From the NCBI GenBank assembly GCA_934479825.1, contig CAKSOW010000003.1, positions 64,604 to 128,603 on the forward strand: a stretch of 64,000 nucleotides of DNA. The letters are read 5' to 3'. Under the pieces are notes generated by a model. It made no database searches. It was not told the origin of the DNA and worked only from the letters and a program-made list of their open reading frames with translations. A program made the position numbers and the translations under genes. Below, piece after piece: positions 4,230-62,276 of the stretch. How positions within the stretch are numbered: position 1 is the first letter of the stretch; the number at the start of each line of letters is the position of its first letter. This DNA is from an uncultured Eubacteriales bacterium (GTDB lineage Bacteria > Bacillota > Clostridia > Oscillospirales > CAG-382).

Positions 4230-6133
4230 ACGTTCGCCGCCTTTTCGGTGGGCTCCTCAGAGGGAGCAGCCTTTATGGTTGCCTTTGCCACGCGGATCTC
4301 TTTTTTCGACATGGCTTTGGTCAAGAGCGCCCGGATCTTACGGATTCCGTTGACGGAAGTTTCTGCAAGTCCCATGGTATATTCAATATCCGCTTCGGTA
4401 TATTTTTCACGCTGTTCAAGGAGCAATGTAATGCGTTTCAGGATGTGCTCGACCGTAATGTAGTCGGTGCGGTTTACAAAAATGACAAATTGTGCATTTC
4501 CGTTATAGACATAGAACGCGTCCAGCGTACCGAAAGCTTCTTTGATGATATCGGCAACAAAGCGGATCAAACCGTCTCCGCCATCGCGTCCGTACACATC
4601 GTTTAACGAAGTCTGATTGAGAATATGGAAGTTGACACAGACAATGCCGTCGTCCAAGATCTTGCGGTCATTGCTCTTCAAATAGTTGTCAAAAGCCACA
4701 CGGTTGGCAAAACCGGTCAGGTGGTCGGTATAGAACATGTACTCGATGATGTCGTTGACTCTTCCGAGAAGCGTTGCACCGAACGAGCAGACAAGGAGGA
4801 AGAACACCGCCGCAATTGCCGTATACAGTTTCACATCGACGCTTTCGCCGACTGCTACGCTCGACAGGGTCGAAATGTATTTGGCGCCCAAATACTCATT
4901 ATACTCGGCATTGGTCTGCTCGGCAAGATCATGGTACTTATTGAGTTTGTCCACCAGTGTCTTGATATCCTCATAGACTGCCGTGCGCAAGTCCTCATAA
5001 CCCGCTTCGCTGAGTTCCGCACAGGTTTTACCGGAATAGGCGCATAAGCCGCCGCAGGTACCTTTGCATTCATTGAAGGTATTGATCAAATATTGGTAAT
5101 AGGCAGACTGAATCACCGCGTATTCGCGCGTATCGGTATGGTCGCGCCAGCTGTATATGAGTTTATCGTAGGTTACGGTATGATCTGCGCCGTTCTGACT
5201 GCCGTATTCCTTTTCATAGACCTGATCGAGAATATACTCATGATTGATATTGGTATTGCCCGACTCACGCATTTTTACAACATAATCGTCAATAATTTGC
5301 AGAACGTCGTTTATTTTGCCGTCTTCGGAAATATTGGAAATGCTGTTCTGACTGATACGCTCGGTATAGTCGGAGACTAAGACGGCTTTGTTTTTGGTGA
5401 TCTGGTGGCCGAAGATGCGCGAATAGAGCTTGGCAACCTCGGTATCCTGCAAATAGTAAAATTCATTAGCAAGGTCGGCAAAGGAAAGACCGGTCGTGGT
5501 CGCACGGAAATAGAGATTGCCCGATGAACGCCGGTTGAGTGCCTGCAAGGTTTCACTTATATTGTCGTCAATCAGATCCATCATTTCGATATAATCATAC
5601 GATTCATCGTAGATATCGGAAAGCGAATTGACGGTAGAGCTGGAATTGAGATACTTTTCACCGAATTCCGAATAGTAAATATTGATGATCTCATCCAACA
5701 CGCGTCTGGCAAAACCCATGCCCTCACCTTTTTTCGCCACGAATGAAACGATATAGGTAGTCGGTTCTTCGGTATACTGCTCACCGTTATCTAAAACCGC
5801 CTGCTTTCTGGCCGCTTCATCCTCATCGATCACTTCGGTGATATTGACGCGCGAAAGCAAGGAATCAATCGAATAAATGCCTTCGTCAAGCCCCAGACTT
5901 GCCGTAACCTTGGTCATGATAGCCGACGATTTGATCTCATTGACATCAAGCGCCGTTCCGTCAGGCGCTTGACCGGATTTTGCCTCGTCATAATCGTAGT
6001 GAATAACGGTCGAAGCAACATAAGTCTGCGAAGAGGACAGCACAAAATAGACTGCCGCCGTTAACACAACGCAAAGTACGATAATAAACGGCAGGAATTT
6101 TTTGATATAGCGTGAAAGCTGAAATTTCTTCAT
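4226..6133 (-). CDS. Polysaccharide co-polymerase (Wzz/PCP)-like bitopic membrane protein fused to a C-terminal degenerate GGDEF domain
   Basis: N-terminal TM followed by a Wzz-like start (SSSQTYVASTVIHYDY), a roughly 400-aa extracytoplasmic region and a second TM (LYTAIAAVFFLLVCSFGATLLG). The cytoplasmic tail has GGDEF-fold landmarks HLTGFANRVAF and NDVYGRDGGDGLIRF, but YNGNAQF in place of RxGGDEF. Confidence 0.7.
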   Translation of the reverse strand: MKKFQLSRYIKKFLPFIIVLCVVLTAAVYFVLSSSQTYVASTVIHYDYDEAKSGQAPDGTALDVNEIKSSAIMTKVTASLGLDEGIYSIDSLLSRVNITEVIDEDEAARKQAVLDNGEQYTEEPTTYIVSFVAKKGEGMGFARRVLDEIINIYYSEFGEKYLNSSSTVNSLSDIYDESYDYIEMMDLIDDNISETLQALNRRSSGNLYFRATTTGLSFADLANEFYYLQDTEVAKLYSRIFGHQITKNKAVLVSDYTERISQNSISNISEDGKINDVLQIIDDYVVKMRESGNTNINHEYILDQVYEKEYGSQNGADHTVTYDKLIYSWRDHTDTREYAVIQSAYYQYLINTFNECKGTCGGLCAYSGKTCAELSEAGYEDLRTAVYEDIKTLVDKLNKYHDLAEQTNAEYNEYLGAKYISTLSSVAVGESVDVKLYTAIAAVFFLLVCSFGATLLGRVNDIIEYMFYTDHLTGFANRVAFDNYLKSNDRKILDDGIVCVNFHILNQTSLNDVYGRDGGDGLIRFVADIIKEAFGTLDAFYVYNGNAQFVIFVNRTDYITVEHILKRITLLLEQREKYTEADIEYTMGLAETSVNGIRKIRALLTKAMSKKEIRVAKATIKAAPSEEPTEKAANV

Positions 6134-6154
6134 ATGTTTATCTCCTTTGCCGCC

Positions 6155-7552
6155 TTAAAGAGTATAGTTCTTTTCGTCGTCCTCTAAAACCGAAGCCACA
6201 TCCCCGGTTTTGAGAAGTTCGCCGGCAATGCCGTACAAATACAGCGCAAAGAAGAACATAAAAACAAGCACCGCGCTGATAAGCGCTTTCTTTACAAACG
6301 TATTATCGGTTACGCTGACGCTGATACAATTATTCATGCGCGTTTCGGAATACTCTTGACTGATTCGTGCCGCACGCGTGGCATATTTGGCAAGCTCCTC
6401 CTCCACGCCGCGGATCATCTCATCAAGGGCGGCATTGTTTCCGCTTGATGCCGATGCGGAAAGATGTGAGATCAGGTCGTTGTTGGTGTTTATCTGCTTA
6501 TAATATTCTTCCGACTGTTTGCTGTACGACTGCGCCTCCAAAGAAAGCTCGTCGATTCCGACCTTAGTGCGTCCCATATAAAATTCATCCGAAGTGTCCC
6601 ATGTCGGAACAAGCACAACGCGCGTCATTTCTTCCGCATACATGTTCACAGCCGCATTTCGGGTGTCATACGAACTGCGCGCCCGTCTGGCATCGTAATC
6701 GAGCAGCGTGTTTTTGTAATTTAAGCGTTTGATGTATTCGGACGGATTCTTGGATATGCCGTTTTGCGTGACATAGGCCTTGATGTTGTTTTCGATCTGT
6801 TCTTCGTTTAAATTCTCCACTTTGGAGGCAATCGAATAGAACGTCTCGCCGTCCGAAGAAACAAAGCTGGAATTCCGGTTAGCCATGCCGTACATATAGT
6901 TGGCAATGGTCTGCGTTTGTTTTTGCAGATAGGTGATAATGTCGAGATAATCGGATTCATTGGCCTCGGCGTCTTTTTCCGGCGTGAAGTTCATCACCGA
7001 AAAATCGTCTGCATATTTTCCGATATAGAATTCCTTGAACGCGTCGCCCACCAACTGAACCACGTTTTTTGCATCAAGACCTGCCGTCTTTGCGCTTGCC
7101 GTATAGGTGATCCGGAATTCAGTGGAAATATGATAACCTTTTTCCGAAAGAGAGTTGCCTTGGACGGTCGGTTCGACTGTCAGGCACTTCTTTAAATCCT
7201 TTACCGTCACATCCGTAAAGCCGCCTTTTTCAATGGCGCGCGCAATGACGGCATTGTCCAGGATTTCAGCCATGTCAAAACGTGTGCCGTTGGAATTCTG
7301 CGCCTTGGAGGCTTCGGTGTAATTTAAGGAGACAATGGCCTGCTTGTAGTTGTTCTTGTTCAGATTGAAACCTAAGAAAACAGCCACGACAAACACAAAG
7401 GTAAGCACAAATGCCCCGGCCTTGACCTTTCGTTTGGCAAGCAAAAAGTTTTTGACTTTGGAAAGCGGAAAATGACGGGTCTTTATCGCAATTACAACAA
7501 CCGAAAAGGCGATAAGGACAACCACCGCAAGCATACACAGTTTGAGTAACAT
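6155..7552 (-). CDS. Second chain-length-determinant-like membrane protein (N- and C-terminal TM segments, large external domain)
   Basis: 465-aa ORF with TM helices at both ends flanking a roughly 350-aa hydrophilic domain. It sits next to the PCP-GGDEF gene. Assigned by topology and context only. Confidence 0.4.
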   Translation of the reverse strand: MLLKLCMLAVVVLIAFSVVVIAIKTRHFPLSKVKNFLLAKRKVKAGAFVLTFVFVVAVFLGFNLNKNNYKQAIVSLNYTEASKAQNSNGTRFDMAEILDNAVIARAIEKGGFTDVTVKDLKKCLTVEPTVQGNSLSEKGYHISTEFRITYTASAKTAGLDAKNVVQLVGDAFKEFYIGKYADDFSVMNFTPEKDAEANESDYLDIITYLQKQTQTIANYMYGMANRNSSFVSSDGETFYSIASKVENLNEEQIENNIKAYVTQNGISKNPSEYIKRLNYKNTLLDYDARRARSSYDTRNAAVNMYAEEMTRVVLVPTWDTSDEFYMGRTKVGIDELSLEAQSYSKQSEEYYKQINTNNDLISHLSASASSGNNAALDEMIRGVEEELAKYATRAARISQEYSETRMNNCISVSVTDNTFVKKALISAVLVFMFFFALYLYGIAGELLKTGDVASVLEDDEKNYTL

Positions 7553-10700: not shown

Positions 10701-10742
10701 AAAAAATAAAAAAGACTGACTGCACAAACCAGGCAGTCAGTC
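10701..10742 (-). terminator. Intrinsic terminator in the 5' leader of the EPS operon (riboswitch expression platform)
   Basis: Minus strand reads GACUGACUGC-CUGGUUUGU-GCAGUCAGUC followed by UUUUUUAUUUUUU. This lies directly upstream of the RBS of the sugar transferase gene. Confidence 0.8.
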
Positions 10743-10821
10743 GATCATTCCGTTTCCGGGTTAGACACTTAACTTTGCGTCCCCACTTTTCAATGGGTTT
10801 GCCAAAAAGACTATAAAACTG
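10734..10821 (-). ncRNA. c-di-GMP-I (GEMM-I) riboswitch aptamer
   Basis: Minus strand contains GGCAAACCCAUUGAAAAGUGGGGACGCAAAG: the GGCAAAC junction, a P2 hairpin capped by a GAAA tetraloop, and the ACGCAAAG motif. Next comes a second hairpin with a CUAA receptor-like bulge. A P1 pairing (CAGU..AGUC / GACU.ACUG) overlaps the terminator's 5' arm. Confidence 0.75.
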
Positions 10822-22436: not shown

Positions 22437-22540
22437 TTTTTGAAAAATGTGAAAAGGGGCGGTTTTACGTTCTTTTTGCTTCTGCAAAAAGAACCAAAAA
22501 GCAGCCGCGAGGGTTGCGACCCTCCCGACTCCCGGGGAGC

Positions 22541-23371
22541 GGTTCAAAACCCGTGCGGTGGGAGTATAGGCAAAATTTGAAATGTTCAGCACATTAAGAT
22601 TTTTTGCGAAAAATTTTTAGTGCCACAAAACGCACGGCCATGTTTTGAACCGGCGCGAACCGCGAATTTTCATCAGACGCTCGGACGCGTCAAAAGTTGC
22701 CGGTGGCAAGTTTTGGCGTGTCGGAGACCGCCGAAACAGGGAGTATTGTGAGCGGACGCGAACAAGACGACCATGTTTCAAGGAGACTATCGCTAAATAT
22801 CTGTATTTTGATTTAGGTCGGTTAGTGCTGGGGCTTGACGCCGCAAACGGTCGATGAAAAGGAAAGTTGCACGTTATCTTTGTTGCGGTGAAAAGGGGAC
22901 ACTGGCGTGGATTGATAGACAGTTTGGTGCAAAGCCATAGCTTTGGGGTGCACCAAAGCTATGTGGGCAGGTAATATTTTTAGACTTTGCCAAAACGCTT
23001 TTATGCGCAGAAAATTTGAAGTTATACAGTTCTGTCCGAAACTATTTGTTTTCCGAAAAGATTTCTTTCTGTTCGCCACAAAACAACTTCCTACCCAACC
23101 TTCTCTTTTTCGCAAAACCGGAATCTGCTCTCGCCCTCCCCCTCCCACCAAACTCCCCCTTTTTCGGAAACACATAACCTACTGTCCACCCAAATCAAAA
23201 CTTGCCTTTTCATAAATACCTACAAATCCTTGCGCAGTAAAGTACGCGTCTCGCACCGGTTCAAAATACTCCGAGCTGTATGGCACAAGGTTGCAAATTC
23301 TCGTAAAAATCCTTGATAGCTACATAACTTGCGACTTAATCAAAAATTTGCCGCTCGGAATTTTGAACCGG
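22541..23371 (+). repeat. Copy A of an interspersed non-coding element bounded by inverted hairpin modules (22541-22653 and 23256-23371)
   Basis: Homologous by eye over most of its length to 58550-59266 (same orientation) and 46050-46782 (opposite orientation). There is no long ORF. The flanks (about 22452-23563) are chains of short palindromes. Confidence 0.8.
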
Positions 23372-23533
23372 GGTCGCAGGGCGGAGCCCCGCGTGCTTTT
23401 TGGTTACTTTTTGCACGCCGCAAAAAGTAACTGAAAACCGTCCCTTACCTGCTTTTCGCGAAACGAAAAGCACTCTTCCCAGGTTTTTCCGAAAAAGAAA
23501 AGCCTGCCCTTTTGTTACTTTTCGGAAAAGTAA

Positions 23534-23563
23534 GGCTCCCGAAAGCAAATGCTTTCGGGAGCC
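23534..23563 (-). terminator. Hairpin terminator downstream of the SLH surface-protein gene (looks bidirectional)
   Basis: GGCTCCCGAAAGC-AAAT-GCTTTCGGGAGCC with T-rich sequence on both strands, 18 nt beyond the stop at 23581. Confidence 0.7.
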
Positions 23564-23580: not shown

Positions 23581-26500
23581 TTACTGAAAACGAATCCAGT
23601 CGATCCAGAATTCACCCGGAACATTATTGAACGGGTCAATACGGAGTCCCGATATCGTTCCTGTCCAATCGGCATTGGACGAAAGGTCGAACGAATACTC
23701 AATATATTCGCCGTTTGAGGTCTGCTCTAACTCAGCACGGTAAGTACGTCCTTCGGAAAGGCCGCCTGCGCTTGATTGGAAGTAAACCACAAGCTGGAAT
23801 TCGCCCTTGTTCTCGTCGGTCTTTTCAGCCTGAATCTCATGTTTCATGCGAATTTTCAAGGTCTTATAACGGTTTGCGTCAATCGAAAGCACCGGAGAGG
23901 TGAGAGCCGGGTCATAACGACCGCCCCAGCCGCCTTTCTGATCCATGTCGTTTCCGTAGAAATTGCCGTCAACAACCGTTGCCGTCGCGTTTCCGAGCGT
24001 CCAACCCTCACCGTCGCCGGTAAGATTGAATTCCCACTCATTGGCCACACGGGAAGAAATCGCCTCATAGACTTCGTCGCTGAATGTGATAACGTTAAAC
24101 AGTTTCACGCCGTTTTCATCCGTCTTGGTTTCGGTCTTATAGCCGAACGTATCGACAATAAAGTGAAGCGGAACCATGGGAATGCCGTCTTCGAGATACG
24201 GTGCATAGTTCACCGAAACCGGTTCGCCGTTGACTGTGATCTTCTTGGAGCCCATGGTAAACACAATCTGCTTGCCATTTTTGGTGAGCGTCAGCTTCTT
24301 GTTGACTTTATCCCACGTGTACGCGCAAGAGAAACGATAGCCAATACCGGTATCCGGATAGAACGGAATCAGTCTATCGCCGTCCACGTCAACCGGAGAG
24401 TAATCAAATTTCACTTCTTCGCCGTTGAGAAGGAACTTTTCAGTCACCGCGTCGCCCAAGAACTGAACTTTTTCCGCACGGAACGAATTCTGAGAGGTAA
24501 TCGGGTCAATACGGAGCGCCGTAATCGTGCCGGTCCAGGTTGCAAGCGACGACATATTGATGACAACCGGGTTCATTCCCTCTTGGGTAATCTTCGCGGA
24601 AGCACCCTTGTCAGCCGTCCAGCTCTGGCTCTTATCCGTCTGGAAGTAGACCTCGACGCTGTTGCCGACCGGTCCGTCTACCCAAACCTTGAGCTGCTTG
24701 ACGTCTGCTGCCTTGAATTGCGGTGCAGTGCCCGGACGGTGGAGAATCGGGTCGGTATTGGTAGCCGTACCGACGATGATATCGCCCTCCGCTTCGGTGG
24801 TGCAGTTGCTGCCGTGCCAAAGCGTTTCGCCGTTTTCAGCAAACTTTTCTTCGTAAATGACTTTTGTGGCTTCCGGGGCCTTGTAGTATCCCTGCGGACG
24901 GATAATCTCGCGGTTTAACGGATACATATGTCCCAAACGCGACATTTGCAGTGTATCCGGTCTTTCATCGGTGTGATTCGGTTCTTTGGTGAATACCTTG
25001 CGGACAGTATCGAGATAACCAAAGCCGTTGAGGCCGGCCGGCATCATATACGTACCTTCGCCGTATTCGTTCCAGGTGGAAAGCATGACGAACTTCTTTT
25101 TCCATTCGTCGCCGTTTCCGGTGATATCATATTTGTCTAATGCCGAATCACGGATCCAGGTAAGAACCTGTTCCATGTTTTCGGTGGTAAGAAGCGGATA
25201 ACGGGTATAAGCCCAGGCAATGTTGTTGAAACCGGTGGAAACGGTCGGAACATTATGCATAATACCGTAGCCGTTCTTCTGCTGGTCAGCTATCTTTTCC
25301 TGGTTCCAGACTGCGCTGGACGCCGCATTGCCCCAGTTATAGGCATGAACCGCGTCGATGCCCATGTTGGCAAGCTTTTGAAGCTGTGCGGTATTGGCCG
25401 AACCCTCGCAAGCCATGATGATGATATCGTCATAGCCCATTTCCTTAACGCGCGAACGCAGGTAATCAAACGCTTCCTTGACGCCAGCCTCTGTGCCGCC
25501 GAAAGAATCCTTTAATTTGTCTGCGCCGAAAATAGACATGACCGGCTTGTTATCGATAATCATATAACGCGGATCCGAGAAGAAATACTCAACCCAGAAA
25601 TCGACAAAACGTCCCTTGAAGTCATCCAGATTTTCCGGTCTTGTGCCGTTGGCCGCTTCCCAAAGAAGGGCAAACTTGCCGTATTTTTCACTGTATTTTG
25701 CGTTCATGAAGCCCTCAAAGAGCGCTTTCGGCGTTGAGCCGTAGAAAGACTTAAAGGGCGCGTCGCTCGAATGGTACCAGCAGATAAGCTGGAAGTCCAC
25801 ACCGTGTTCCGCCATAAACTTGATTTCCCAGTCGGCGACTTCCGGCAGTCCTTCGTCATACCAGCCTAAAACCGGCTTGTTTTCGTCATACGGCGAAATG
25901 TTGTCCCAGCCCCAGTGGTGACCGTTTCTCCACAGGTTGCAGACATTGATACCGATAAAGTAATCGTCTGCGCCTGCCGGAACTTTCGGTTCAGAGGGAT
26001 AGTTATCATAATCGGGAATCTTCTCAACGATGATATCGTCCAGTTTCAGCGTCTTACCGCCGTTGTTTTCGGAGGCAATATACAAACCGTCAAGCGTAGA
26101 AGCGGCAGCCGCAAACGGAATATCCTTTGCAATGGTCTTACCGCTGACCTTGATGGTAGCTGTCTGCGTTGCCGTATCGGCATACAGACGAACCATATAC
26201 CACATGTAATTCGAGTAGCTGCGAAGTTCCTTGCCGTTGGCGTACATCTTGCCGTCCTTGGTAGTAAAGGAAACGATCGGCGTGCCGCCCGAGGTAAGAG
26301 CATACGTAAAGCCGTCTGCCATTTCCGGGTAAAGCAGGATGAGCTCCGTGCTGATATTCCCGCTCACTGCCTTAAAGGACTTGGACATGGAAGCCTTTCC
26401 GGTGTTGCCTTTAAAGACAAATTCGCCGCCGGATACTTCGACCGTCATATCGCCGGTCTGCTCCACTGTCCAAGAGTCGGGAATGACTTTGGTACGTGCG

Positions 26501-28263
26501 GAATCGTTGACAAGGTAGTTGCAATACATACGAAGCGGATAAACCGCGGTGTCCATAACCGCTTCGTCGGTTGTTCCGGTGCGGAACACGGCAATATCAA
26601 CCGCCGCGCCGGTGGCAAAACCGAATGTGCCGCAATTCTTGCCGTCAAGCTCAATGCGGTTGGTTCTTGCCGCAAGGTCAGTATCGATGCGGATAATGGT
26701 GGGCTTGCCGAGCGTCGGTTTTACGCCGACCGGCTTTTCTTCCCCCTTATCGAGAACATAAAATTCACCGTTCTTGGTAAAGAGTTTGTAAGCCTCCGTT
26801 CCGGATGTGCCGAGCGTTTCCATGTACCAGCCGTCGATAAACGAGTTGAACGTAACGCCGAATTCGGTCGTTACAACGCCTGCGTCCTGAACGGTGAGCG
26901 TGCGGGTAAGCGTTACCGGTTCGGTCGTGCTGATATCGGAAAGCGAATAAGGCGGTTCGTCACTTGTTTTGCCGGCGCCGCCGCGGTTATCGAAATCCCA
27001 GCCGGACTGCAACGTCGTCTTGACGCTGTTACGGGTGGAATAACCGCTGTCGTCAGCAATCCAATACGCACTTTCGGGATTGACCTTGACGGTAAGGTCT
27101 TTATCCAAGCGATGCGCTTTATCGGCAATACGGTCGGCAATGGCCGCAACCTCGCTGCGCGTGATATTGGAATCGGGGTTAAACGTTCCGTAAATATCGT
27201 TACCCATGCAGATACCGGCGTTATAGAACATCAAAACGGCCTTTGCATACGCCGCATCAGACGAAATATCCGGAATGTGGGTGACATAATTCAGAGTTTC
27301 AAAGCATTCTTCGGGAAGAGCCGCCGCAAAGAGCGACACCATTTCGTGACGCTTGATAGCGCAGTCAAAGCTGTCAAACATGCCGTCGGTCAAGAACCCC
27401 TCTTTCTTGGCGTAGTTGACATAATTTGTATACCATGCGGCTCCGTCAGCCGATTTCAGATTTGCAGCTTCGCCGTCACCCTTAACGGTTGAGTGCATTC
27501 TCGAAGCAAGCGTAACCGCCTCGGCCACCGTCATCGTCCCCTCGGGGTTGTAGGTGGTCGCGCTGTCGCCGTTGACAAGAGCAAATTCATATGCGCCGGA
27601 AACAGCGTCATAGAACCAGTCTTTTACGGTAACATCCGAAAAAGCGTCGGTATAAGTACGGCTCTTGGCAAATTTCGACGGGATAACCGTTTTTTCCTTG
27701 GCCGGGATATCCTTGATCTTTTCCGCGTCGGTCAGCGTAATGCGCTTGATCGGCTGTCCTTCGACAAAGCGGATATTCTTGATCTGCGCCTTGCCGGTCA
27801 GATCGCTGAACGAATAGAAGATACCGGTGACCTTGCCTGTCCAATCGCCGTTGGTAGCCATATCAAAAGTATATTCTACAAAACCGTCGGATTTTTCCTG
27901 TAAAGTGACGCTGATCTTCTTGCTCTCGGAAAAAGCCGGAGCGTCCGTGGTACGGAAATAGAAACCATGTGAGGTTTTGTTTTTGCCCAGCGGCGAAACC
28001 TCAGACTTGACTTCCATTTTGATGTAACGGTAGACGTTTGCATCCACGTCCACGCCCGGGAAAAAGATGGCCGGGGATTCGTTTTTCTCGTTCAAGCCCT
28101 GGATATCTAAATCCAGAACCCCGTCTGTAACGGTTGCGTTAATACCGCGGAACGATAATTTGTCGTTCAACGGTACACTGATGTCGTCTGCCGCAAACGC
28201 CGCGACGGCAAACACCGTCAAAAGCGCCAACACACAGGCGAACAAGGCTGTTCTTTTTTTCAT
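23581..28263 (-). CDS. Large secreted cell-surface protein: signal peptide, SLH domains, WbsX-like glycan-active domain, copper-amine-oxidase-N-like domain, three copies of a roughly 150-aa module
   Basis: Signal peptide MKKRTALFACVLALLTVFAVAAFA. SLH-like segments (FSDVTVKDWFYDAVSGAYEFALVNG; AYAKAVLMFYNAGICMG...ITRSEVAAIADRI). WbsX-like region (YFIGINVCNLWRNGHHWGWDNISPYDENKPVLGWYDE). Stalk-like LLNGEEVKFDYSPV...GIPMVPLHFIVDTFGY. The repeated module ends in WTG-x-[IV]-[TS]. Confidence 0.8.
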   Translation of the reverse strand: MKKRTALFACVLALLTVFAVAAFAADDISVPLNDKLSFRGINATVTDGVLDLDIQGLNEKNESPAIFFPGVDVDANVYRYIKMEVKSEVSPLGKNKTSHGFYFRTTDAPAFSESKKISVTLQEKSDGFVEYTFDMATNGDWTGKVTGIFYSFSDLTGKAQIKNIRFVEGQPIKRITLTDAEKIKDIPAKEKTVIPSKFAKSRTYTDAFSDVTVKDWFYDAVSGAYEFALVNGDSATTYNPEGTMTVAEAVTLASRMHSTVKGDGEAANLKSADGAAWYTNYVNYAKKEGFLTDGMFDSFDCAIKRHEMVSLFAAALPEECFETLNYVTHIPDISSDAAYAKAVLMFYNAGICMGNDIYGTFNPDSNITRSEVAAIADRIADKAHRLDKDLTVKVNPESAYWIADDSGYSTRNSVKTTLQSGWDFDNRGGAGKTSDEPPYSLSDISTTEPVTLTRTLTVQDAGVVTTEFGVTFNSFIDGWYMETLGTSGTEAYKLFTKNGEFYVLDKGEEKPVGVKPTLGKPTIIRIDTDLAARTNRIELDGKNCGTFGFATGAAVDIAVFRTGTTDEAVMDTAVYPLRMYCNYLVNDSARTKVIPDSWTVEQTGDMTVEVSGGEFVFKGNTGKASMSKSFKAVSGNISTELILLYPEMADGFTYALTSGGTPIVSFTTKDGKMYANGKELRSYSNYMWYMVRLYADTATQTATIKVSGKTIAKDIPFAAAASTLDGLYIASENNGGKTLKLDDIIVEKIPDYDNYPSEPKVPAGADDYFIGINVCNLWRNGHHWGWDNISPYDENKPVLGWYDEGLPEVADWEIKFMAEHGVDFQLICWYHSSDAPFKSFYGSTPKALFEGFMNAKYSEKYGKFALLWEAANGTRPENLDDFKGRFVDFWVEYFFSDPRYMIIDNKPVMSIFGADKLKDSFGGTEAGVKEAFDYLRSRVKEMGYDDIIIMACEGSANTAQLQKLANMGIDAVHAYNWGNAASSAVWNQEKIADQQKNGYGIMHNVPTVSTGFNNIAWAYTRYPLLTTENMEQVLTWIRDSALDKYDITGNGDEWKKKFVMLSTWNEYGEGTYMMPAGLNGFGYLDTVRKVFTKEPNHTDERPDTLQMSRLGHMYPLNREIIRPQGYYKAPEATKVIYEEKFAENGETLWHGSNCTTEAEGDIIVGTATNTDPILHRPGTAPQFKAADVKQLKVWVDGPVGNSVEVYFQTDKSQSWTADKGASAKITQEGMNPVVINMSSLATWTGTITALRIDPITSQNSFRAEKVQFLGDAVTEKFLLNGEEVKFDYSPVDVDGDRLIPFYPDTGIGYRFSCAYTWDKVNKKLTLTKNGKQIVFTMGSKKITVNGEPVSVNYAPYLEDGIPMVPLHFIVDTFGYKTETKTDENGVKLFNVITFSDEVYEAISSRVANEWEFNLTGDGEGWTLGNATATVVDGNFYGNDMDQKGGWGGRYDPALTSPVLSIDANRYKTLKIRMKHEIQAEKTDENKGEFQLVVYFQSSAGGLSEGRTYRAELEQTSNGEYIEYSFDLSSNADWTGTISGLRIDPFNNVPGEFWIDWIRFQ

Positions 28264-45782: not shown

Positions 45783-45925
45783 CCAAGGGCTGCTCGCCCT
45801 TGACCTCGCCCGCTTTTCTTTTAAGAAAAGTGGGACAAAAGAATTCATATTTTGCCGCCCGATGGTTTGAATCGTCAAACCATCGGGCGGTTTTGGCTTT
45901 CCCGGAAAAGCCCGGAAAGAGGCTC
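45783..45925 (+). repeat. Multi-hairpin 3' module (four consecutive palindromes) that includes the nagA terminator
   Basis: CAAGGGC-TGCTC-GCCCTTG; CCCGCTTTTCTT..AAGAAAAGTGGG; GCCGCCCGATGGTTTG-AATCGT-CAAACCATCGGGCGG+TTTT (45854-45894); GGCTTTCCCGGAAAAGCC. Homologous in inverted orientation to 53411-53550. Confidence 0.75.
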
Positions 45926-46049
45926 TTAGGGAAACCGTTCTTTTCTCGAAAAGTTTCCAAAAGGAACGGTTTTAATGTTACTTTTTCGCTTGTACGAAAA
46001 AGTAACCCAAAAGTACACCAGAGGGTGCGCCCTCTGGACTCCGGGGAGC

Positions 46050-46782
46050 GGTTCAAAATTCCGAGCGGTGGGATTTTAGGTGAAATTTGAAACGTTCAGC
46101 GTATTAAGATTTTTTGCAAGAATTTATTAGTGCCGCAAATACGCACGGCCATGTTTTGAACCGGTGCGAGACGGTAGTTTTACTGCGCAAGGATTTGTGA
46201 GTTTTTATAATTTTTATAAAAAGAAAAACTATGATTTGAGTAGACAGTAGGTTATGTGTTTCAGGGAACGGGGAGTTTGGTGAGATGTTGTTTTTGAGAG
46301 AATAGAAAGCTTTTATTTGGGAAAACGGAAAGTTGGAGACGAGAATGCAAAAAATTCAGTTTTTTTGCACACAAAAACATTTTTAATAAACCTCAAATTT
46401 TTCGCAAGCTCACATCACTTTTGTGTAAAGCTAAGCTTATTTTTATTCCAACTTTCCACCAGTCCACACCCCTTTTGCATCATGCCAAATCATGGTTTTG
46501 CTCCAACTTTTCCACTCAGCCCACACTAATTTCCCCTTTCCGCCGCAACAATATAACGTGCGTGCAGTTTCCCTTTAAAACGGCTACTTGCGGCGTCAAG
46601 CCTGCACTGCAACTTCAATTTTTCACAAAACCCAATTCTGCGTCTTATCAAAAGTTTCCCTTTCGCACCGGTTCAAAACATGGCCGTGCGTGTTTGCGGC
46701 ACTGACAAACTTTTGCAAACTTTTTTAATACGCTGAATGTTTCAAGTTTCACCTGAAATTCCACCGCACGGGTTTTGAACCG
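46050..46782 (-). repeat. Copy B of the interspersed hairpin-bounded element (modules 46050-46164 and 46668-46782), inverted relative to copies A and C
   Basis: The interior is the reverse complement of the copy A/C interior. For example, GACAGTAGGTTATGTGTTTC here corresponds to GAAACACATAACCTACTGTC in A. Palindrome-rich flanks span about 45905-46950. Confidence 0.8.
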
Positions 46783-47000
46783 TTCCCCGGGAGTCCAGAG
46801 GGCGGCGGCCCTCGGCGTGTTTTTGGTTACTTTTTGCACGCCGCAAAAAGTAACAGAAAAAACATCTCTTCCTTTACTTTTCGAGAAACGAAAAGTATGT
46901 ATTATCATCCCTTAGGGAAATTTTCAGAAAAAGGAAAATTTCCCTAAGAACCCCTTTACAGGCTTTGGGCATCATACAACGTGTTTTTGTCGAATGCCTC

Positions 47001-53286: not shown

Positions 53287-53362
53287 GCCCCTGTAGCTCA
53301 GCCGGTAGAGCACATGACTTTTAATCATGGTGTCCGGAGTTCGATTCTCCGCAGGAGCACCA
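53287..53362 (+). tRNA. tRNA-Lys (anticodon UUU), CCA encoded
   Basis: Cloverleaf: acceptor GCCCCTG/CAGGAGC (one C-A mismatch), D arm GCTC-AGCCGGTA-GAGC, anticodon arm CATGA-CTTTTAA-TCATG, T arm CGGAG-TTCGATT-CTCCG, 3' ACCA. Confidence 0.85.
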
Positions 53363-53410: not shown

Positions 53411-53550
53411 GCCGGGAAAGAGCGTTTCCGGTTTTACCGGAAAAACCAAAGACGCTCGATGGCAAACCATCGAGCGTCAAATTTTAAATTCTTTTGCCCC
53501 ACTTTTCTTTTAAGAAAAGCGGGCTCAGTTTAAGGGCGAGCAACCCTTGT
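53411..53550 (-). repeat. Second copy of the multi-hairpin 3' module, carrying the terminator of the nucleotidyltransferase gene (53441-53478)
   Basis: The reverse complement aligns by eye with 45783-45925. Shared landmarks are AAGGG.TGCTCGCCCTT, CCCGCTTTTCTT..AAGAAAAGTGGG, and the CGATGG...CCATCG long hairpin followed by TTTGGTTTTT on the minus strand. Confidence 0.75.
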
Positions 53551-57508: not shown

Positions 57509-58225
57509 TTATTTATAGAGAAACGCAAGCGGATTGATACCGGAAAGTTTGGTGAACAAGATAGCATTGGCTGCGCTTTCTTTATCTATGGCGATGCCTG
57601 CGCCCGGCAGATACGGCAATGCGATGTTTACCACCGTGCAGAAAACGAATACGGCAAGAAGTCCGGCTGCCGCGCCAAAGACGAAGCCGCCTAATTTATT
57701 GGCAAAATGTAATACCGGCAATTTGAAAATGAGATCCAACAACAGCACGGCAAGATTCAAAAGTACAATAGCCGCTAAGAATACGGCAAGCACCGCAAGT
57801 GCGTTGGATAACGTCTCGGCGGCAGGTTCAACGATATAATCGGATAATTTGGCCGCTATCTGCGTTTCGCCGCTTTCGACAAGTTCGGTATATTTTTCCT
57901 TGACTTTATCCGTACCCGTGCCGAAACCGGACAGAAGAGCGGTAATGCCGGCAGGGGCGTCGTCAAGAAGAGTGCCGAGTTTTTCCGAATCCAAGGAATT
58001 GGCTACGTATTCTTCTACTTTTTCGTTTAAATTGTCCGTTAACTGCTTATAGACTAATGTACTGCGAAAATATTCTGCTACGGACGCATGAAAATTGACG
58101 GCAATCAATACCGCGGCGATCGTTACGACCGTACCGCAGACGGATTTGATAAGGCCGCGTTTAGCGCCGCTTATGGCAAACAAAACAAAAATTACGGCAA
58201 TGATAACGTCAAGAAACAACCACAT
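57509..58225 (-). CDS. cvpA: CvpA family membrane protein
   Basis: The MWLFLDVIIAVIFVLFAISGAKRGLIKS start and four TM segments are typical of colicin V production protein family members. Confidence 0.75.
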   Translation of the reverse strand: MWLFLDVIIAVIFVLFAISGAKRGLIKSVCGTVVTIAAVLIAVNFHASVAEYFRSTLVYKQLTDNLNEKVEEYVANSLDSEKLGTLLDDAPAGITALLSGFGTGTDKVKEKYTELVESGETQIAAKLSDYIVEPAAETLSNALAVLAVFLAAIVLLNLAVLLLDLIFKLPVLHFANKLGGFVFGAAAGLLAVFVFCTVVNIALPYLPGAGIAIDKESAANAILFTKLSGINPLAFLYK

Positions 58226-58549
58226 ATTTGTATATCTGTCCTCTCACGATGAGCCTGATGAATAAGGGGGATAGTCTATTGTATGAATTTTAACAAAGAT
58301 ATACCCTTAACATTATAACATTATATCATTCTTTTGAAGTGAAATCAATAGAAAAAGTGTTGGTTTTGTTATTTTTCTTTTAATTTTAAAAATTCGGAAA
58401 CCCGTCTCTTAGGGAAATTTTCCCTAAGAGACGGGTTTAATGTTACTTTTTCGCTTGTACGAAAAAGTAACCAAAGGGGACGTTTTTACGTTCTTTTTGC
58501 TTCTGCAAAAAGAACCAAAAAGCAGACGGGGCTAACGCCCTGCGACCTC

Positions 58550-59266
58550 GGTTCAAAACCCGTGCGGTGAGATTTTAAGTAAAATTTGAAACGTTCTGCG
58601 CATTAAGTTTTTTTGCAAAAGTTTGTTAGAACCGCGATACGCACGGCCACGTTTTGAACCGGTGCAAAAGGGAAACTTTTGATAAGACGCAGAATCGGGT
58701 TTTGAGGAAAATTGAAGTTGCAGTGCGTGCTTGCCGCCGCAGACAGTCGATAAAAAGGGAAACTGCACGTTGTTTTTGGCACGGCGGAAATGGGAAATCG
58801 GTGTGGGTTGGTAAAAGATTAGCGTAAAGCCGTTGCTTGGCATGACATCAAAATGGTGTGAACTGATAGAAACTTTGAGATTTATTAGATGCTTTGTTTG
58901 AGGAAAACCAGAGCTTTTGCATTTTCTTACAAAACTTACCGGTTCTCACAAAAGAAACTCTCTGCTCACTACAAAACAACTTCCGCCAAACTTTTCTTTT
59001 TCCCGTAAAGCTATAAGTCTGTTGCTCAAAATAACACCTCCCACCAAACTTCCCCATTTCCTGAAACACATAACCAGCTGTCCACCCAAATCAAACTTTG
59101 CCTTTTTATAAACACCTGCAAATCCTTGCGCAGTAAAGCATGCGTCTCGCACCGGTTCAAAACATGGCCGTGCGTGTTTGCGGCACTAACAAACTTTTGC
59201 AAAACTTTTTAATACGCTCAACTTTTCAAATTTTATCTAAAATCCCACCGCACGGGTTTTGAACCG
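58550..59266 (+). repeat. Copy C of the interspersed hairpin-bounded element (modules 58550-58661 and 59152-59266)
   Basis: Same architecture and orientation as copy A. Palindrome-rich flanks span about 58398-59385. It lies in the divergent cvpA/pyrH intergenic region. Confidence 0.8.
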
Positions 59267-59450
59267 CACCCTGGGAGTCCAGAGGGCCGCAGCCCTTGGT
59301 CTGCTTTTGGTTACTTTTCGCAGAGGCGAAAAGTAACCGAAAAACGTCTCTTACATACTTTTCGCAAAATGAAAAGCATGTAACCCCAGACAGGCAGTCC
59401 CGGCCTCGCAACCAATATGTCACAATTTCTTGATATTTACAAATAAACTC

Positions 59451-59479
59451 TTGCATTTCGTAAAGATTTTTGATATAAT
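59451..59479 (+). promoter_or_regulatory. Sigma-A promoter of the pyrH-frr-uppS-cdsA operon
   Basis: TTGCAT, 17 nt, TATAAT. Confidence 0.6.
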
Positions 59480-59574
59480 GACTTAGAATATGGATAAGAG
59501 CCGCTTATCTTGCCATAAAACCGTAATTCCACACTATTTTATTTGTAAACATCCGGAAAGGAATGGGAAAACCA

Positions 59575-60282
59575 ATGCCTAAATACAAACGCGTCCTGCT
59601 CAAACTTTCGGGCGAAGCTCTCAAAAACTCCTCGGAAAAAGGAATCATCGATTTTGACTTTACCGCTAAGGTAGCCGAACAGATCAAACGCTGTACCGAC
59701 GAGGGCGTCTCGTTCGGACTTGTTATCGGCGGCGGCAACATCTGGCGCGGCGCAGGCAAAGCCATTGACCGCACACGTGCCGATCACATGGGCATGCTCG
59801 CCACAGTTATCAATTCGCTTGCTGTGCAGACCGTCTTGGAAGAACACGGCGTCCCGACGCGTGTCATGACCGCTCTGCAAATGAATCAGATTGCCGAACC
59901 GTATATCCGCAACCGCGCTGTTTCTCACCTTGAAAAAGGCCGCGCTGTCATCATTGGCTGCGGCACGGGCAACCCCTACTTTTCCACTGACACGGCGGCT
60001 GTTTTAAGAGCGGCTGAAATTGGTGCAGACGTGGTTTTATTTGCCAAGAACATCGACGGCGTTTACACGGCAGACCCAAAAAAAGATCCCAATGCCAAGA
60101 AGATTGATGAAATGACCTACGATGATATCATTCACCACGATCTCGGTGTTATCGACAGCACGGCTTCCTCATTCGGCCGTGACAACAAACTCCCGATCAT
60201 CATTTTCGGTCTGAACGATCCCGAAAACATTTATCGCGCCGTTTGCGGCGAAAAGATCGGCACGATCGTCCGCAACGGTTAA
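59575..60282 (+). CDS. pyrH: UMP kinase
   Basis: [23 protein letters not shown], and the [13 protein letters not shown] motif. The second ATG (59575) has better RBS spacing than 59563. Confidence 0.9.
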
Positions 60283-60867: not shown

Positions 60868-61634
60868 TGTTCGGTTTTTTTAAAAAGAAACAGGAGCTTC
60901 TTCCGGAACGCGTTCCGAAGCATGTGGCATTTGTGCTCGACGGCAACGGCCGTTGGGCCGCAAAGCGTGCTCTTCCGCGCACAGCCGGTCACAAAGCCGG
61001 TGCGACTAAATTTGAAGAGATTACGGAAGTTTGCCATGAGGCCGGTGTAGAGACCATCACGGCATATGCGTTTTCAACGGAAAACTGGAAGCGGTCAAAA
61101 GAAGAAATTGACGGCATCATTGCGCTTTTAGACACCTACCTGGATGATTTGATTGAGATCAAATACAAGAAAAATATCCGTTTACGCGTACTTGGCGACA
61201 ACACGGCGTTTCCGGATTACATTCAGGAAAAGATCCGGATAGCCGAAGAAAAAACGGCGCCGAACCGGTACAATCTGAATTTATGCCTGAATTACGGAGG
61301 ACGTGCGGAATTATGTCATGCGTTCAACCGTTTAATAGAACGTGGGTTTACGCATGTGACGGAGGAAGACATCGCGTCGGAGGTCTACACAGCGCCGACG
61401 GGGGATCCGGATATTATCATCCGGACAGGCGGCGACACGCGCTTATCCAACTTTTTACTGTGGCAGGCGTCGTATGCGGAATTATATTTTACGCCGACGT
61501 TATGGCCGGATTTCTCGAAAGAGGAATTATATGAGATTTTCCGCAAGTTTTCAAAGACCAACCGCCGCTATGGCGGCTACGGTGCGGAAGCCGCACAGCA
61601 AAATTCACGGAAAAGTTTGGCAGAAAAGAAATAG
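60867..61634 (+). CDS. uppS: Isoprenyl transferase (undecaprenyl diphosphate synthase)
   Basis: HVAFVLDGNGRWA, AYAFSTENWKR, and RTGGDTRLSNFLLWQASYAELYF. The last roughly 17 codons and the stop lie inside the first unit of the 134-bp tandem array. Confidence 0.9.
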   Translation: MFGFFKKKQELLPERVPKHVAFVLDGNGRWAAKRALPRTAGHKAGATKFEEITEVCHEAGVETITAYAFSTENWKRSKEEIDGIIALLDTYLDDLIEIKYKKNIRLRVLGDNTAFPDYIQEKIRIAEEKTAPNRYNLNLCLNYGGRAELCHAFNRLIERGFTHVTEEDIASEVYTAPTGDPDIIIRTGGDTRLSNFLLWQASYAELYFTPTLWPDFSKEELYEIFRKFSKTNRRYGGYGAEAAQQNSRKSLAEKK

Positions 61635-62176
61635 TTTCCGGACGCGAAGGCAAATCCGCCGCGTCGGCATAAACGCCACCGCCGCGGCTCAAAAAAAACA
61701 GAAGTGCAAAGCTTTTGCGGAAGCCGCACAGCAAAATTCACGGGAAAGCTTGGCGGAAAAGAAATAGTTTCCGGACGCGAAGGTTATTCCGCCGCGTCGG
61801 CATAAACGCCACCGCCGCGGCTAAGAAAAAAGCAGAAATGCAAAGCTTTTGCGGAAGCCGCACAGCAAAATTCACGGGAAAGCTTGGCGGAAAAGAAATA
61901 GTTTCCGGACGCGAAGGTTATTCCGCCGCGTCGGCATAAACGCCACCGCCGCGGCTAAGAAAAAAACAGAAGTGCAAAGCTTTTGCGGAAGCCGCACAGC
62001 AAAATTCACGGGAAAGCTTGGCAGAAAAGAAATAGTTTCCACACGCGAAGGTTATTCCGCCGCGTCGGCATAAACGCCACCGCCGCGGCTAAGAAAAAAA
62101 CAGAAGTGCAAAGCTTTTGCGGAAGCCGCACAGCAAAATTCACGGGAAAGCTTGGCAGAAAAGAAATAGTTTCCGG
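61584..62176 (+). repeat. Tandem array, about 4.4 units of 134 bp (the first spacing is 133 bp)
   Basis: The unit start GCGGAAGCCGCACAGCAAAATTCACGG recurs at 61584, 61717, 61851, 61985 and 62119. The units are nearly identical. The period is not a multiple of 3. Confidence 0.9.
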
Positions 62177-62276
62177 ACGCGGAGGCCGCGGAAGGCATCC
62201 GCAAAAAAGATGCATACCCTCACAGATTTCGGCATTATGTATTCCCTTCGGAATATGGCAACAAGGATGTGACGAA

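Follow-up and report, generated by a model that had tools for sequence, protein, structure and literature searches.

The window analysed is a 64,000-nt stretch of DNA in which three intergenic gaps of 1.2-1.3 kb each hold one copy of a non-coding cassette. The cassette is about 1 kb long (0.9-1.1 kb), is repeated at many fixed intergenic sites, and belongs to a family hosted by one uncultured human-gut Clostridia/Eubacteriales species. The scanned genes of the window are housekeeping genes, and no recombinase or integrase was seen among them. Each cassette consists of an oriented core with a long hairpin module on each side, followed outward by a terminator-like hairpin and, outermost, by 1-5 AT-rich mini-hairpins. 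Because the terminator-like hairpins and the mini-hairpin arrays belong to the repeated unit, the entire gaps consist of element sequence. The cores and modules lie where the first-pass annotation had located them; the element itself reaches past the modules into the terminators and mini-hairpins. Within the window the cassettes occur at a density of ~1 per 20 kb, and their parts are as follows.

Copy A, 22452-23540 (core and modules 22540-23370)
22452-22539, minus strand: left arm, with a mini-hairpin (22468-22495) and an outward T-b terminator-like hairpin (22496-22539)
22540-22652, no strand: left module M1
22653-23256, plus strand: core, with a skew flip as in copy C and an extra segment of ~120 nt
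23257-23370, no strand: right module M2, GGTTCAAAAT-AC-TCCGAGC ... GCTCGGA-ATTTTGAACC
23371-23540, plus strand: right arm, with an outward T-a terminator-like hairpin (23371-23404), then three or four mini-hairpins
Copy B, 45940-46960, inverted (core and modules 46049-46782)
45940-46048, minus strand: element-right arm, with mini-hairpins and an outward terminator-like hairpin (46005-46048)
46049-46163, no strand: chimeric module, M1 in its body and M2-type in its 3' stem arm
46164-46668, minus strand: core, in minus orientation
46669-46782, no strand: module M1
46783-46960, plus strand: other arm, with an outward T-b terminator-like hairpin (46783-46827), then mini-hairpins and a CTTAGGGAAATTTTCC palindrome
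Copy C, 58398-59385 (modules and core 58549-59266)
58398-58438, no strand: outermost left palindrome, two 20-nt arms that are 100% complementary; a like unit adjoins copy B
58441-58516, no strand: left AT-rich mini-hairpin pair, GTTACTTTTTCG..CGAAAAAGTAAC and GTTCTTTTTGC..GCAAAAAGAAC, with spacer AAAGGGGACGTTTTTAC
58517-58548, minus strand: left outward terminator-like hairpin, type T-a, a GC stem then TTTTTGG
58549-58662, no strand: left module M1, with P1 of 11 bp, a one-sided bulge of 4 nt, P2 of 7 bp and an interior of ~75 nt
58663-58880, plus strand: G-rich core half, with a GC skew from +0.18 to +0.47
58881-58960, plus strand: AT-rich centre of the core, where the GC skew changes sign and length varies most among copies
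58961-59152, plus strand: C-rich core half, with a GC skew from -0.42 to -0.62 and repeat units of the CCCACCAAACT type
59153-59266, no strand: right module M1, the inverted version of the left M1
59267-59310, plus strand: right outward terminator-like hairpin, type T-b, CCAGAGGGC-CGCA-GCCCTTGG then TCTGCTTTTGG
59309-59385, no strand: right mini-hairpins, GGTTACTTTTCGC..GCGAAAAGTAACC and CTTTTCG..GAAAAG, with spacer AAAAACGTCTCTTAC

The description of copy C was borne out, with inverted arms at 58549-58635 and 59180-59266 that are 85% complementary, and a second inverted pair was found at 58639-58679 and 59135-59175 (83% complementary). Its outer palindromes lie at 58398-58438, 58441-58470, 58490-58516 and 59309-59338. 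Within the core, the G-rich half contains conserved blocks at 58687-58698 and 58729-58742 and a patch with 30 differences between strains (58704-58843), and the segment from 59039 to 59152, which includes CAAATCCTTGCGCAGTAAA and TCTCGCACC, is strongly conserved. The claim that every core begins and ends with the same inverted module holds for copy C but not for the other two, since the right end of copy A carries M2 and one module of copy B is chimeric. The modules are not a product of chance: the window contains CGGTTCAAA 13 times, where 1.7 would be expected, and 12 of these 13 occurrences are module ends. Likewise, the window has 6 matches to the mini-hairpin pattern, where 0.01 would be expected, and every one of them adjoins a cassette copy.

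Three module types (M1, M2 and M3) were distinguished, and in all of them the closing stem CGGTTCAAA...TTTGAACCG is invariant. Each module of copy C is closed by GGTTCAAAAC-CCGTGCG ... CGCACGG-CCA(C/T)-GTTTTGAACC, and the M2 of copy A resembles M1 in the closing stem only. The module interiors are conserved and unpaired, and in three variants of the module stem G-T pairs form on the inward instead of the outward strand. Module types and the two terminator types combine freely between copies, chimeric modules occur, and a segment of ~112 nt is inserted at differing places in different copies; the extra ~120-nt segment in the core of copy A (about 22665-22790) recurs within the terminator loops of other copies. 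Comparison of the copies in this way shows that modules have been exchanged between them by recombination. The combination of interchangeable hairpin modules with an invariant stem points to a putative sequence-specific partner protein, which would probably bind that stem as well. In their asymmetric bulge and large variable loop the modules bear a structural resemblance, and only that, to integron attC sites. This candidate was rejected because the stems GGTTCAAAAC ... GTTTTGAACC, by reading, misfit RYYYAAC ... GTTRRRY, the modules are mirror-oriented around a non-coding core, and the window contains no integrase.

Perfect inverted repeats of ~17 nt, TTTTGAACCGGTGCGA and TCGCACCGGTTCAAAA, border the core in nearly all copies, whichever module type is present, and the same inverted sites bound each module. 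Such a layout would suit an invertible or shufflon-like switch, in which the four alternating sites at the module borders (ACCGGTTCAAAA / TTTTGAACCGGT) served as recombinase crossovers that flip the core or the modules. An invertible segment had indeed been among the early proposals, but the orientation of module and core is fixed in 21 of 21 copies and in all strains seen. The left M1 always has the same form, M2 lies on the C-rich side in 14 of 14 M2-type modules, and copies B and C are oriented alike in all strains, as read from consensus assemblies, where minor flipped sub-populations would be invisible. There is, moreover, no recombinase gene nearby and no internal promoter to switch, and we consider inversion very improbable.

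Terminator-like hairpins of two sequence types (T-a and T-b) face outward on every arm examined. All arms fold, and most are more stable in the outward sense. A consensus scan of copy C called an outward GC stem plus T-run at 58540-58524 (minus strand) and 59282-59302 (plus strand); in one relative (L049) the same scan called no terminator sites, and the skew is weaker there too. In the T-b stems 98% of cells are paired, three pairs carry two-sided compensatory changes, and the covariation score lies above 500 of 500 shuffles and above every slid control. One-sided changes in the T-b main stem converted G-C to G-U in six cells and gave U-G in one, against one C-A cell, and these G-U and U-G changes pair on the outward-read strand only. 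Covariation on the outward strand thus backs the earlier prediction of outward intrinsic terminators at both ends. The features by which an intrinsic terminator is recognised, a GC-rich stem-loop and a T-run on the transcribed strand, are present as predicted from sequence, with short U-tracts of 4-5 T and then GG.

Coding capacity is as limited as had been proposed: the longest internal ORF, of 117 aa, is in copy A and is not conserved. The LDR and SIB repeats of E. coli turned out to hide type I toxin-antitoxin-like loci, and the cassette, as an intergenic 0.5-1 kb repeat unit with outward terminators, might similarly enclose such a locus or a micropeptide gene. A conserved ATG does follow a GGGTGGA Shine-Dalgarno-like box; however, the ORF that begins there (MCF...) ranges from 5 to 117 aa among copies, with many replacements, and is not hydrophobic. 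Most copies lack a second candidate (MFLCA...) or have it truncated, and ORF clustering across the copies gave no conserved cluster. Furthermore, with arms that are inverted repeats of each other, the outward RNAs would resemble and not complement one another. A toxin-antitoxin-like or micropeptide locus is thereby largely refuted and hardly credible.

The window was also compared with known families. At the gathering threshold an Rfam scan returned only tRNA and a c-di-GMP-I riboswitch, in agreement with the view that the cassette belongs to no known RNA family; the scope of the scan took in the large non-coding RNAs OLE, GOLLD, ROOL, HEARO and raiA, none of which matched the cassette. Under permissive settings, copies C and A and one M3-bearing copy gave sub-threshold matches on the flanking palindromes only. 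Phage and plasmid records contained no match to the cassette, and literature searches found no description of such an element. Judged by these searches, the cassette is without a match to any known repeat or RNA family and is a mosaic intergenic repeat of new form.

In total ~21 full copies, every one of them from the same species, were collected; they have identical architecture, and a diverged homologue with like arms was found in a more distant relative (NagA 75% identical). The family is thus not a plain decayed duplication confined to three loci, as the first-pass annotation had allowed it might be. Three observations were set aside: a supposed copy (L008) that matches the 20-mer by chance, an apparent deletion of 31 nt in one strain (L042) that is a scaffold gap of Ns, and a divergent core (L045) that is probably a join to another copy, or recombination, and was left out.

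Dispersal between genes with ~200-nt inverted arms is what one would expect of an ancient non-autonomous mobile element, or of a selfish repeat of the REP/BIME/REPIN kind, whose stems once served as recognition sites for a transposase or Y1/RAYT-type enzyme from another locus. The terminators would then merely limit harm to neighbours, and the copies would be immobile relics reshuffled by gene conversion. As described in PMC3337134, the REPIN layout consists of two conserved inverted arms around a spacer, and the module (two ~17-nt conserved inverted arms and a ~75-nt spacer) is REPIN-like in this respect. The mixing of modules and terminator types, the chimeric modules and the varying placement of the ~112-nt segment described above also fit this origin. 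Among 34 flanking genes, 25 direct their 3' end toward the element (p = 0.009, with a crude ORF-based gene call), a bias typical of tolerated repeats. Several of the 3'-facing neighbours are very large surface-protein genes, and only families of large surface proteins recur in the flanks. Synteny with sister species breaks at the copy at both loci compared. Because sister species are rearranged at both, an orthologous empty site was not found, and a look-up at MgtE likewise found nothing.

Other evidence weighs against mobility, and the suggestion of an element that is still moving is not supported. Pairwise identity between copies is 67-82%, so that the closest two loci reach 82% and near-identical, young pairs do not exist; in every other strain with a contig that runs across the gap, copies B and C are retained in colinear order, and no presence/absence polymorphism was seen at either. 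No transposase recurs in ~250 kb of flanks, as had been stated for the element itself, no RAYT (Y1 transposase) gene was seen in the window or the fetched flanks, and phage or plasmid relatives are lacking. No solo modules were found outside cassettes. Toward their ends the copies gradually lose homology across differing numbers of mini-hairpins, and because the ends are such ragged hairpin arrays no target-site duplication can be defined. Full architecture in all copies, together with sharply uneven conservation, also speaks against immobile relics, and we regard a mobile or selfish origin as unlikely. By the same comparison, the copies are shown to be diverged paralogues that have kept their architecture and give no sign of recent movement.

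Conservation is concentrated in near-invariant blocks, namely P1/P2, TGAAACACATAACC..CTGTCC.CCCAAATCA, CAAATCCTTGCGCAGTAAA and TCGCACCGGTTCAAAA. This unevenness, combined with the lack of young pairs, argues for selection rather than decay. Bacterial genomes have a deletion bias and, given this bias, the full architecture that all copies keep despite 18-33% divergence suggests that selection is ongoing.

The GC skew of the oriented core flips at the AT-rich centre; read outward, the mean C/G ratio is 2.2 on the left and 3.2 on the right (20 copies). The centre is the most variable part and is mostly missing in one copy (L004a, a locus represented in another assembly by L001), and strong conservation marks the block immediately upstream of the right module. 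Neither strand of the core and no module orientation has a conserved sigma-70 promoter, and weak promoter-like matches are present in the centre of some copies. Searches by eye for sigma-54 or ECF-like matches gave a TGGCAC-N4-TTGC in M2 that has the wrong spacing and is not conserved, and CGTCT boxes with no symmetry between the arms. Three structural candidates were rejected. In long-range pairing of the core halves, one possible compensatory case was not upheld and the left motif is missing in one copy. The whole-element fold reflects the inverted M1 arms only and is inapplicable to M1-M2 or M1-M3 copies. As for RNA structure in the core, the strand difference of the consensus folds comes mainly from G-U pairs, and compensatory changes are few.

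From these data we tentatively infer that the cassettes are old, fixed and selected, and that they may act as transcription boundaries in both directions. Such a boundary would work at the RNA level. Polymerase would enter from the gene on the far side or start weakly in the AT-rich centre; on its way out it would first transcribe a C-rich, G-poor tract of ~200 nt, whose composition resembles a Rho-loading (rut) site, then the long module hairpin, and would finally be released at the outward intrinsic terminator. The genes that face copies A and B have their own terminators ahead of the element, so that little read-through may reach the cassette there. The excess of flanking genes with their 3' end toward the element and the retention of copies B and C in other strains favour the boundary reading, whereas the short U-tracts, the terminator sites not called in L049 and the inward-strand G-T pairs of the three module-stem variants count against it. 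A boundary function leaves unexplained the 110-nt modules, the invariant sequence of their stem, and the mini-hairpin arrays beyond the terminators.

Alternatively, each cassette could be a divergent pair of non-coding RNA genes, and the whole a large paralogous family of trans-acting sRNAs. Promoters that are weak or not of the sigma-70 kind, located in the AT-rich centre or immediately before each module, would start transcription, which would proceed outward through a C-rich 'seed' (CCCACC motifs) and the module, as a protein-binding body of three classes, to the intrinsic terminator. Firmicutes sRNAs such as RsaE/RoxS carry C-rich seeds, and both outward RNAs of the cassette would be C-rich and G-poor. 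The RNA-type (G-U) covariation of the outward terminators is consistent with this possibility, and the skew switches exactly at the AT-rich centre, as back-to-back units predict. Invariant stems with conserved unpaired interiors fit a protein- or target-binding RNA body, and the strong conservation just upstream of the right module and the weak promoter-like matches in some centres could be accommodated as well. However, whatever the orientation, the copies share no promoter in both position and sequence, and the centre, where transcription might begin, is the most variable part and is largely missing from one copy. It would be unusual for trans-acting sRNAs to exist in dozens of copies at 18-33% divergence. 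This reading also leaves the mini-hairpin arrays past the supposed 3' ends unexplained and does not predict enrichment at gene 3' ends. Since no sigma-70 promoter is conserved, a passive boundary fits better than strong sRNA genes, and we consider the sRNA family possible though doubtful.

It is also conceivable, although fairly unlikely in our estimation, that the cassettes represent a selected non-coding gene family of a new type. Each locus would then produce two terminator-ended, C-rich RNAs with exchangeable heads (M1, M2, M3, and further types in relatives), and a putative dedicated protein would read the invariant CGGTTCAAA stem. If true, an uncultured gut lineage would have a combinatorial RNA system with dozens of copies in each genome. 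Multi-copy sRNA families (sibling sRNAs, RsaE/RoxS) are comparable in that a terminator-ended C-rich RNA with a structured body is possible for each arm and that several sequence classes exist. The cassettes differ in their far higher copy number, in the mirror-image pairs that such genes would form around a common core, and in having no Rfam match.

Among described repeats, the BIMEs or REP clusters of enterobacteria and the REPINs come close: they too are dispersed intergenic mosaics of several hairpin motifs in variable combinations, with a bias toward gene 3' ends and with proposed roles that include transcription termination and effects on mRNA 3' ends. A REP, however, measures 20-40 nt and a REPIN about 100 nt, in contrast to about 1 kb for the cassette, whose core is oriented, conserved and non-palindromic and shows a skew flip, and which carries canonical outward terminators at either side. 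The sequences are not similar, and the copies of the cassette are old and diverged. The BOX element of Streptococcus pneumoniae (boxA-boxB(n)-boxC) is likewise a modular, non-coding Firmicutes intergenic repeat in which the number of internal units varies and strong RNA structure is predicted; by its general description, it is about 100-350 nt long and is set apart by having no inverted-arm layout, outward terminators or alternative hairpin cassettes. MITEs and Correia-type elements share inverted terminal arms, the absence of an ORF, many intergenic copies and possible regulatory signals. MITEs, however, are usually shorter than 600 bp and have sharply defined ends, target-site duplications, an IS that matches them, and copies that are young or polymorphic in their insertion, and none of these features was found in the cassettes.

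Should the density in the window hold genome-wide, cassettes would account for a few percent of the genome in this uncultured Clostridia species, a common one in the human gut. If they are boundaries or RNA genes, they would constitute a large family of selected non-coding elements with intrinsic-terminator and Rho-type signals, in a lineage that belongs to a group with almost no experimental RNA biology. Cassettes also break short-read assemblies, and many contigs terminate inside a cassette arm. These assembly breaks in the arms, together with the synteny breaks at the copies, indicate that the cassettes affect both the assembly of MAGs of the lineage and chromosome rearrangement.

Inspection of 58200-59600 agreed with the description of copy C in the first-pass annotation. 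A repeat finder recovered its inverted arms (58549-58635 / 59180-59266, 85% complementary), a second inverted pair (58639-58679 / 59135-59175, 83% complementary) and outer palindromes at 58398-58438, 58484-58521 and 59305-59342, and across the whole window further family members were present at 22540-23370 and, inverted, at 46049-46782. The three ~1-kb non-coding cassettes are:

22452-23540, copy A
45940-46960, inverted, copy B
58398-59385, copy C

They occupy the three 1.2-1.3 kb intergenic gaps of the window (one copy per ~21 kb), and the rest of the window around them is densely coding, with housekeeping genes that include mgtE, nagA, an ABC transporter, cvpA, pyrH-frr-uppS, ftsK and lexA. 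CGGTTCAAA occurs 13 times in the window (1.7 expected), 12 of the 13 being module ends, while the mini-hairpin pattern occurs six times (0.01 expected) and adjoins only the three copies.

Public collections were searched for the invariant 20/21-mer, which was present in three contigs of one GTDB metagenome-assembled genome (MAG; uncultured Clostridia, Hadza gut), 17 contigs of a single metagenome assembly at ~7-8x coverage, and one other contig. The remaining match was a chance hit in an unrelated metagenome contig (L008), which carries at 6000-6260 a run of CTGCGAAGAATCACGACTAGGGTGGGG-like units with very short variable spacers. From the scan contigs we extracted 21 full copies. Because a contig of the metagenome assembly, at the same coverage, holds both a NagA identical to that of the window and copy B with few differences, and because MAG contig L001 equals copy L004a, all 21 are paralogues inside one species (labelled Clostridia/Eubacteriales MAGs by the sources). 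Many contigs start or stop inside an arm; therefore, the true copy number exceeds the assembled number.

Each core is flanked by hairpin modules of three types, all closed by CGGTTCAAA...TTTGAACCG, and the module stems covary between types.

Module types and covarying pairs in the outer closing stem (P1) and inner stem (P2)
M1, 108-113 nt
M2, 112-115 nt
M3, 79 nt
P1 pair 10: A-T in M1 and M2, G-C in M3
P1 pair 11: C-G in M1, T-A in M2
P2: T-A to A-T between M1 and M2

The pairings M1-M1, M1-M2, M1-M3 and M3-M2 were seen; core orientation relative to the arms is constant, with M2 always at the C-rich side. The same module had been described as inverted at both ends, which holds for copy C but not for copy A, which ends in M2. 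The second module of copy B is an M1/M2 chimera, and the reverse chimera was found in copy L010. Beyond each module lies an outward-reading GC-rich stem with a T-run, of two sequence types (T-a and T-b) in free combination with the module types; arms of the same copy are therefore not necessarily complementary. Outermost are 1-5 AT-rich mini-hairpins with AAAACCGTCYCTT-like spacers. A ~112-nt segment of two hairpins (GACTCCTTGAAACATGGTCG...GACGCGTCCGAGC) behaves like a nested insertion or an additional module type: its place differs between copies, lying in the core of copy A (22665-22790) and within the terminator-like hairpin, splitting T-a, in four arms (L006, L012, L015b and L021); it is also found in L002.

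Identity between copies was 67-82% with no near-identical pairs, and the window copies were no closer to one another than to the rest. This divergence, together with the retention of copy B in other strain material, argues against a young MITE family, one form of the non-autonomous mobile element proposed initially. Copy flanks held no recurrent transposase, and phage and plasmid records gave no cassette match. Copy C is colinear across strains ~2% different, its arms without change; between two strain haplotypes, 30 of 34 core differences fall in a 140-nt patch (58704-58843), suggesting gene conversion with an unsampled copy as donor. Inversion, also suggested at first, was not visible, orientation being constant among copies and strains, and an inverton is a minor alternative. 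In sister species (PyrH 83-89%, NagA 85-87% identical), shared gene order ends exactly at copies C and B, and no cassette is present at either position. In a more distantly related organism (NagA 75% identical), a diverged homologue lies at a different locus. Its core can be aligned, and it shares the mini-hairpins and, at either end, the outward GC stem with TTTTGG, but other hairpins replace the GGTTCAAA modules and its skew is weaker.

Conservation is sharply uneven. Stem sequences and module/core junctions are nearly invariant, as are the blocks TCCCACCAAACT, TGAAACACATAACC.GCTGTCC.CCCAAATCA and CAAATCCTTGCGCAGTAAA; sequence and length both differ between copies at the core centre and in the distal C-rich part. 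The T-b stem is 98% paired over 22 arms, with two-sided changes at three pairs and a covariation score above 500 of 500 shuffles and all slid controls. One-sided changes in its main stem are G-C to G-U or U-G (C-A in one cell only), which pair on the outward-read strand only, and the outward sense gives the more stable fold for most T-b arms. These compensatory and strand-specific changes favor the outward intrinsic terminators predicted at both ends. Copies that are 18-33% diverged all keep the full architecture, with uneven conservation along it and compensatory change in the terminator stems, and a second species has a homologue; from these sequence comparisons we argue that the copies are probably under selection and not decaying. 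That they are a selfish repeat, long immobile and shaped by gene conversion, we consider unlikely.

ORF analyses rejected a protein-coding reading, consistent with the initial description of no ORF longer than about 117 aa, and a toxin-antitoxin system is a minor alternative. An Rfam check gave no family match to the cassette. The left half of the core has a GC skew of +0.3 to +0.47 and the right half one of -0.42 to -0.68, so outward RNA would be C-rich and G-poor on both sides (mean C/G 2.2 left, 3.2 right). No conserved sigma-70 promoter was found in core or modules on either strand. The main rival reading, a divergent pair of C-rich, terminator-ended sRNA genes, would need promoters not recognisable here, and we regard it as somewhat doubtful.

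By a crude ORF-based gene call, 25 of 34 flanking genes have their 3' end toward the cassette (p = 0.009), and large surface-protein genes recur next to copies. At window 23581-28263 (- strand) and in the flanks of L020, L021 and L022, surface proteins of very large size, bearing S-layer-homology and copper-amine-oxidase N-terminal domains, directly adjoin cassettes, 3' ends toward them. The hairpin CCCGCTTTTCTTTTAAGAAAAGTGGG lies within a 62-nt inverted repeat (87%), of which one unit adjoins copy B (45808-45869) and the other is at 53463-53524, just downstream of a tRNA (53287-53359); similar units plus a GC-rich terminator (GCCGCCCGATGG...CCATCGGGCGGC) lie by cassettes in L007, L018 and L020.

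Tentatively, we suggest that the cassette may be a two-way transcription boundary, the reading that requires the fewest unseen parts and that agrees both with the lack of a conserved promoter and with the excess of gene 3' ends facing the cassette. A polymerase exiting either way would cross a ~200-nt C-rich tract, a composition of the Rho-loading type, then meet the long module hairpin and last the outward terminator. A boundary leaves the invariant module stems, interchangeable modules and outer mini-hairpins without explanation; these suggest a putative sequence-specific partner. Like REP/BIME/REPIN, BOX and Correia elements, the cassette is a mosaic intergenic repeat, but it differs in size, oriented conserved core, skew flip, paired outward terminators and exchangeable hairpin modules. 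A literature search found no description of such an element, and evidence of RNA products or of a partner protein would raise its interest.

Elsewhere in the window, a tandem repeat (61583-62185; 134-nt unit, 4.5 copies, 96% matches) covers the 3' end of uppS together with the gap between it and cdsA; this spacing varies between strains (~374-474 nt), which suggests copy-number variation. A c-di-GMP-I riboswitch (10729-10813, - strand, 67.5 bits) lies upstream of a minus-strand operon beginning at ~10686.
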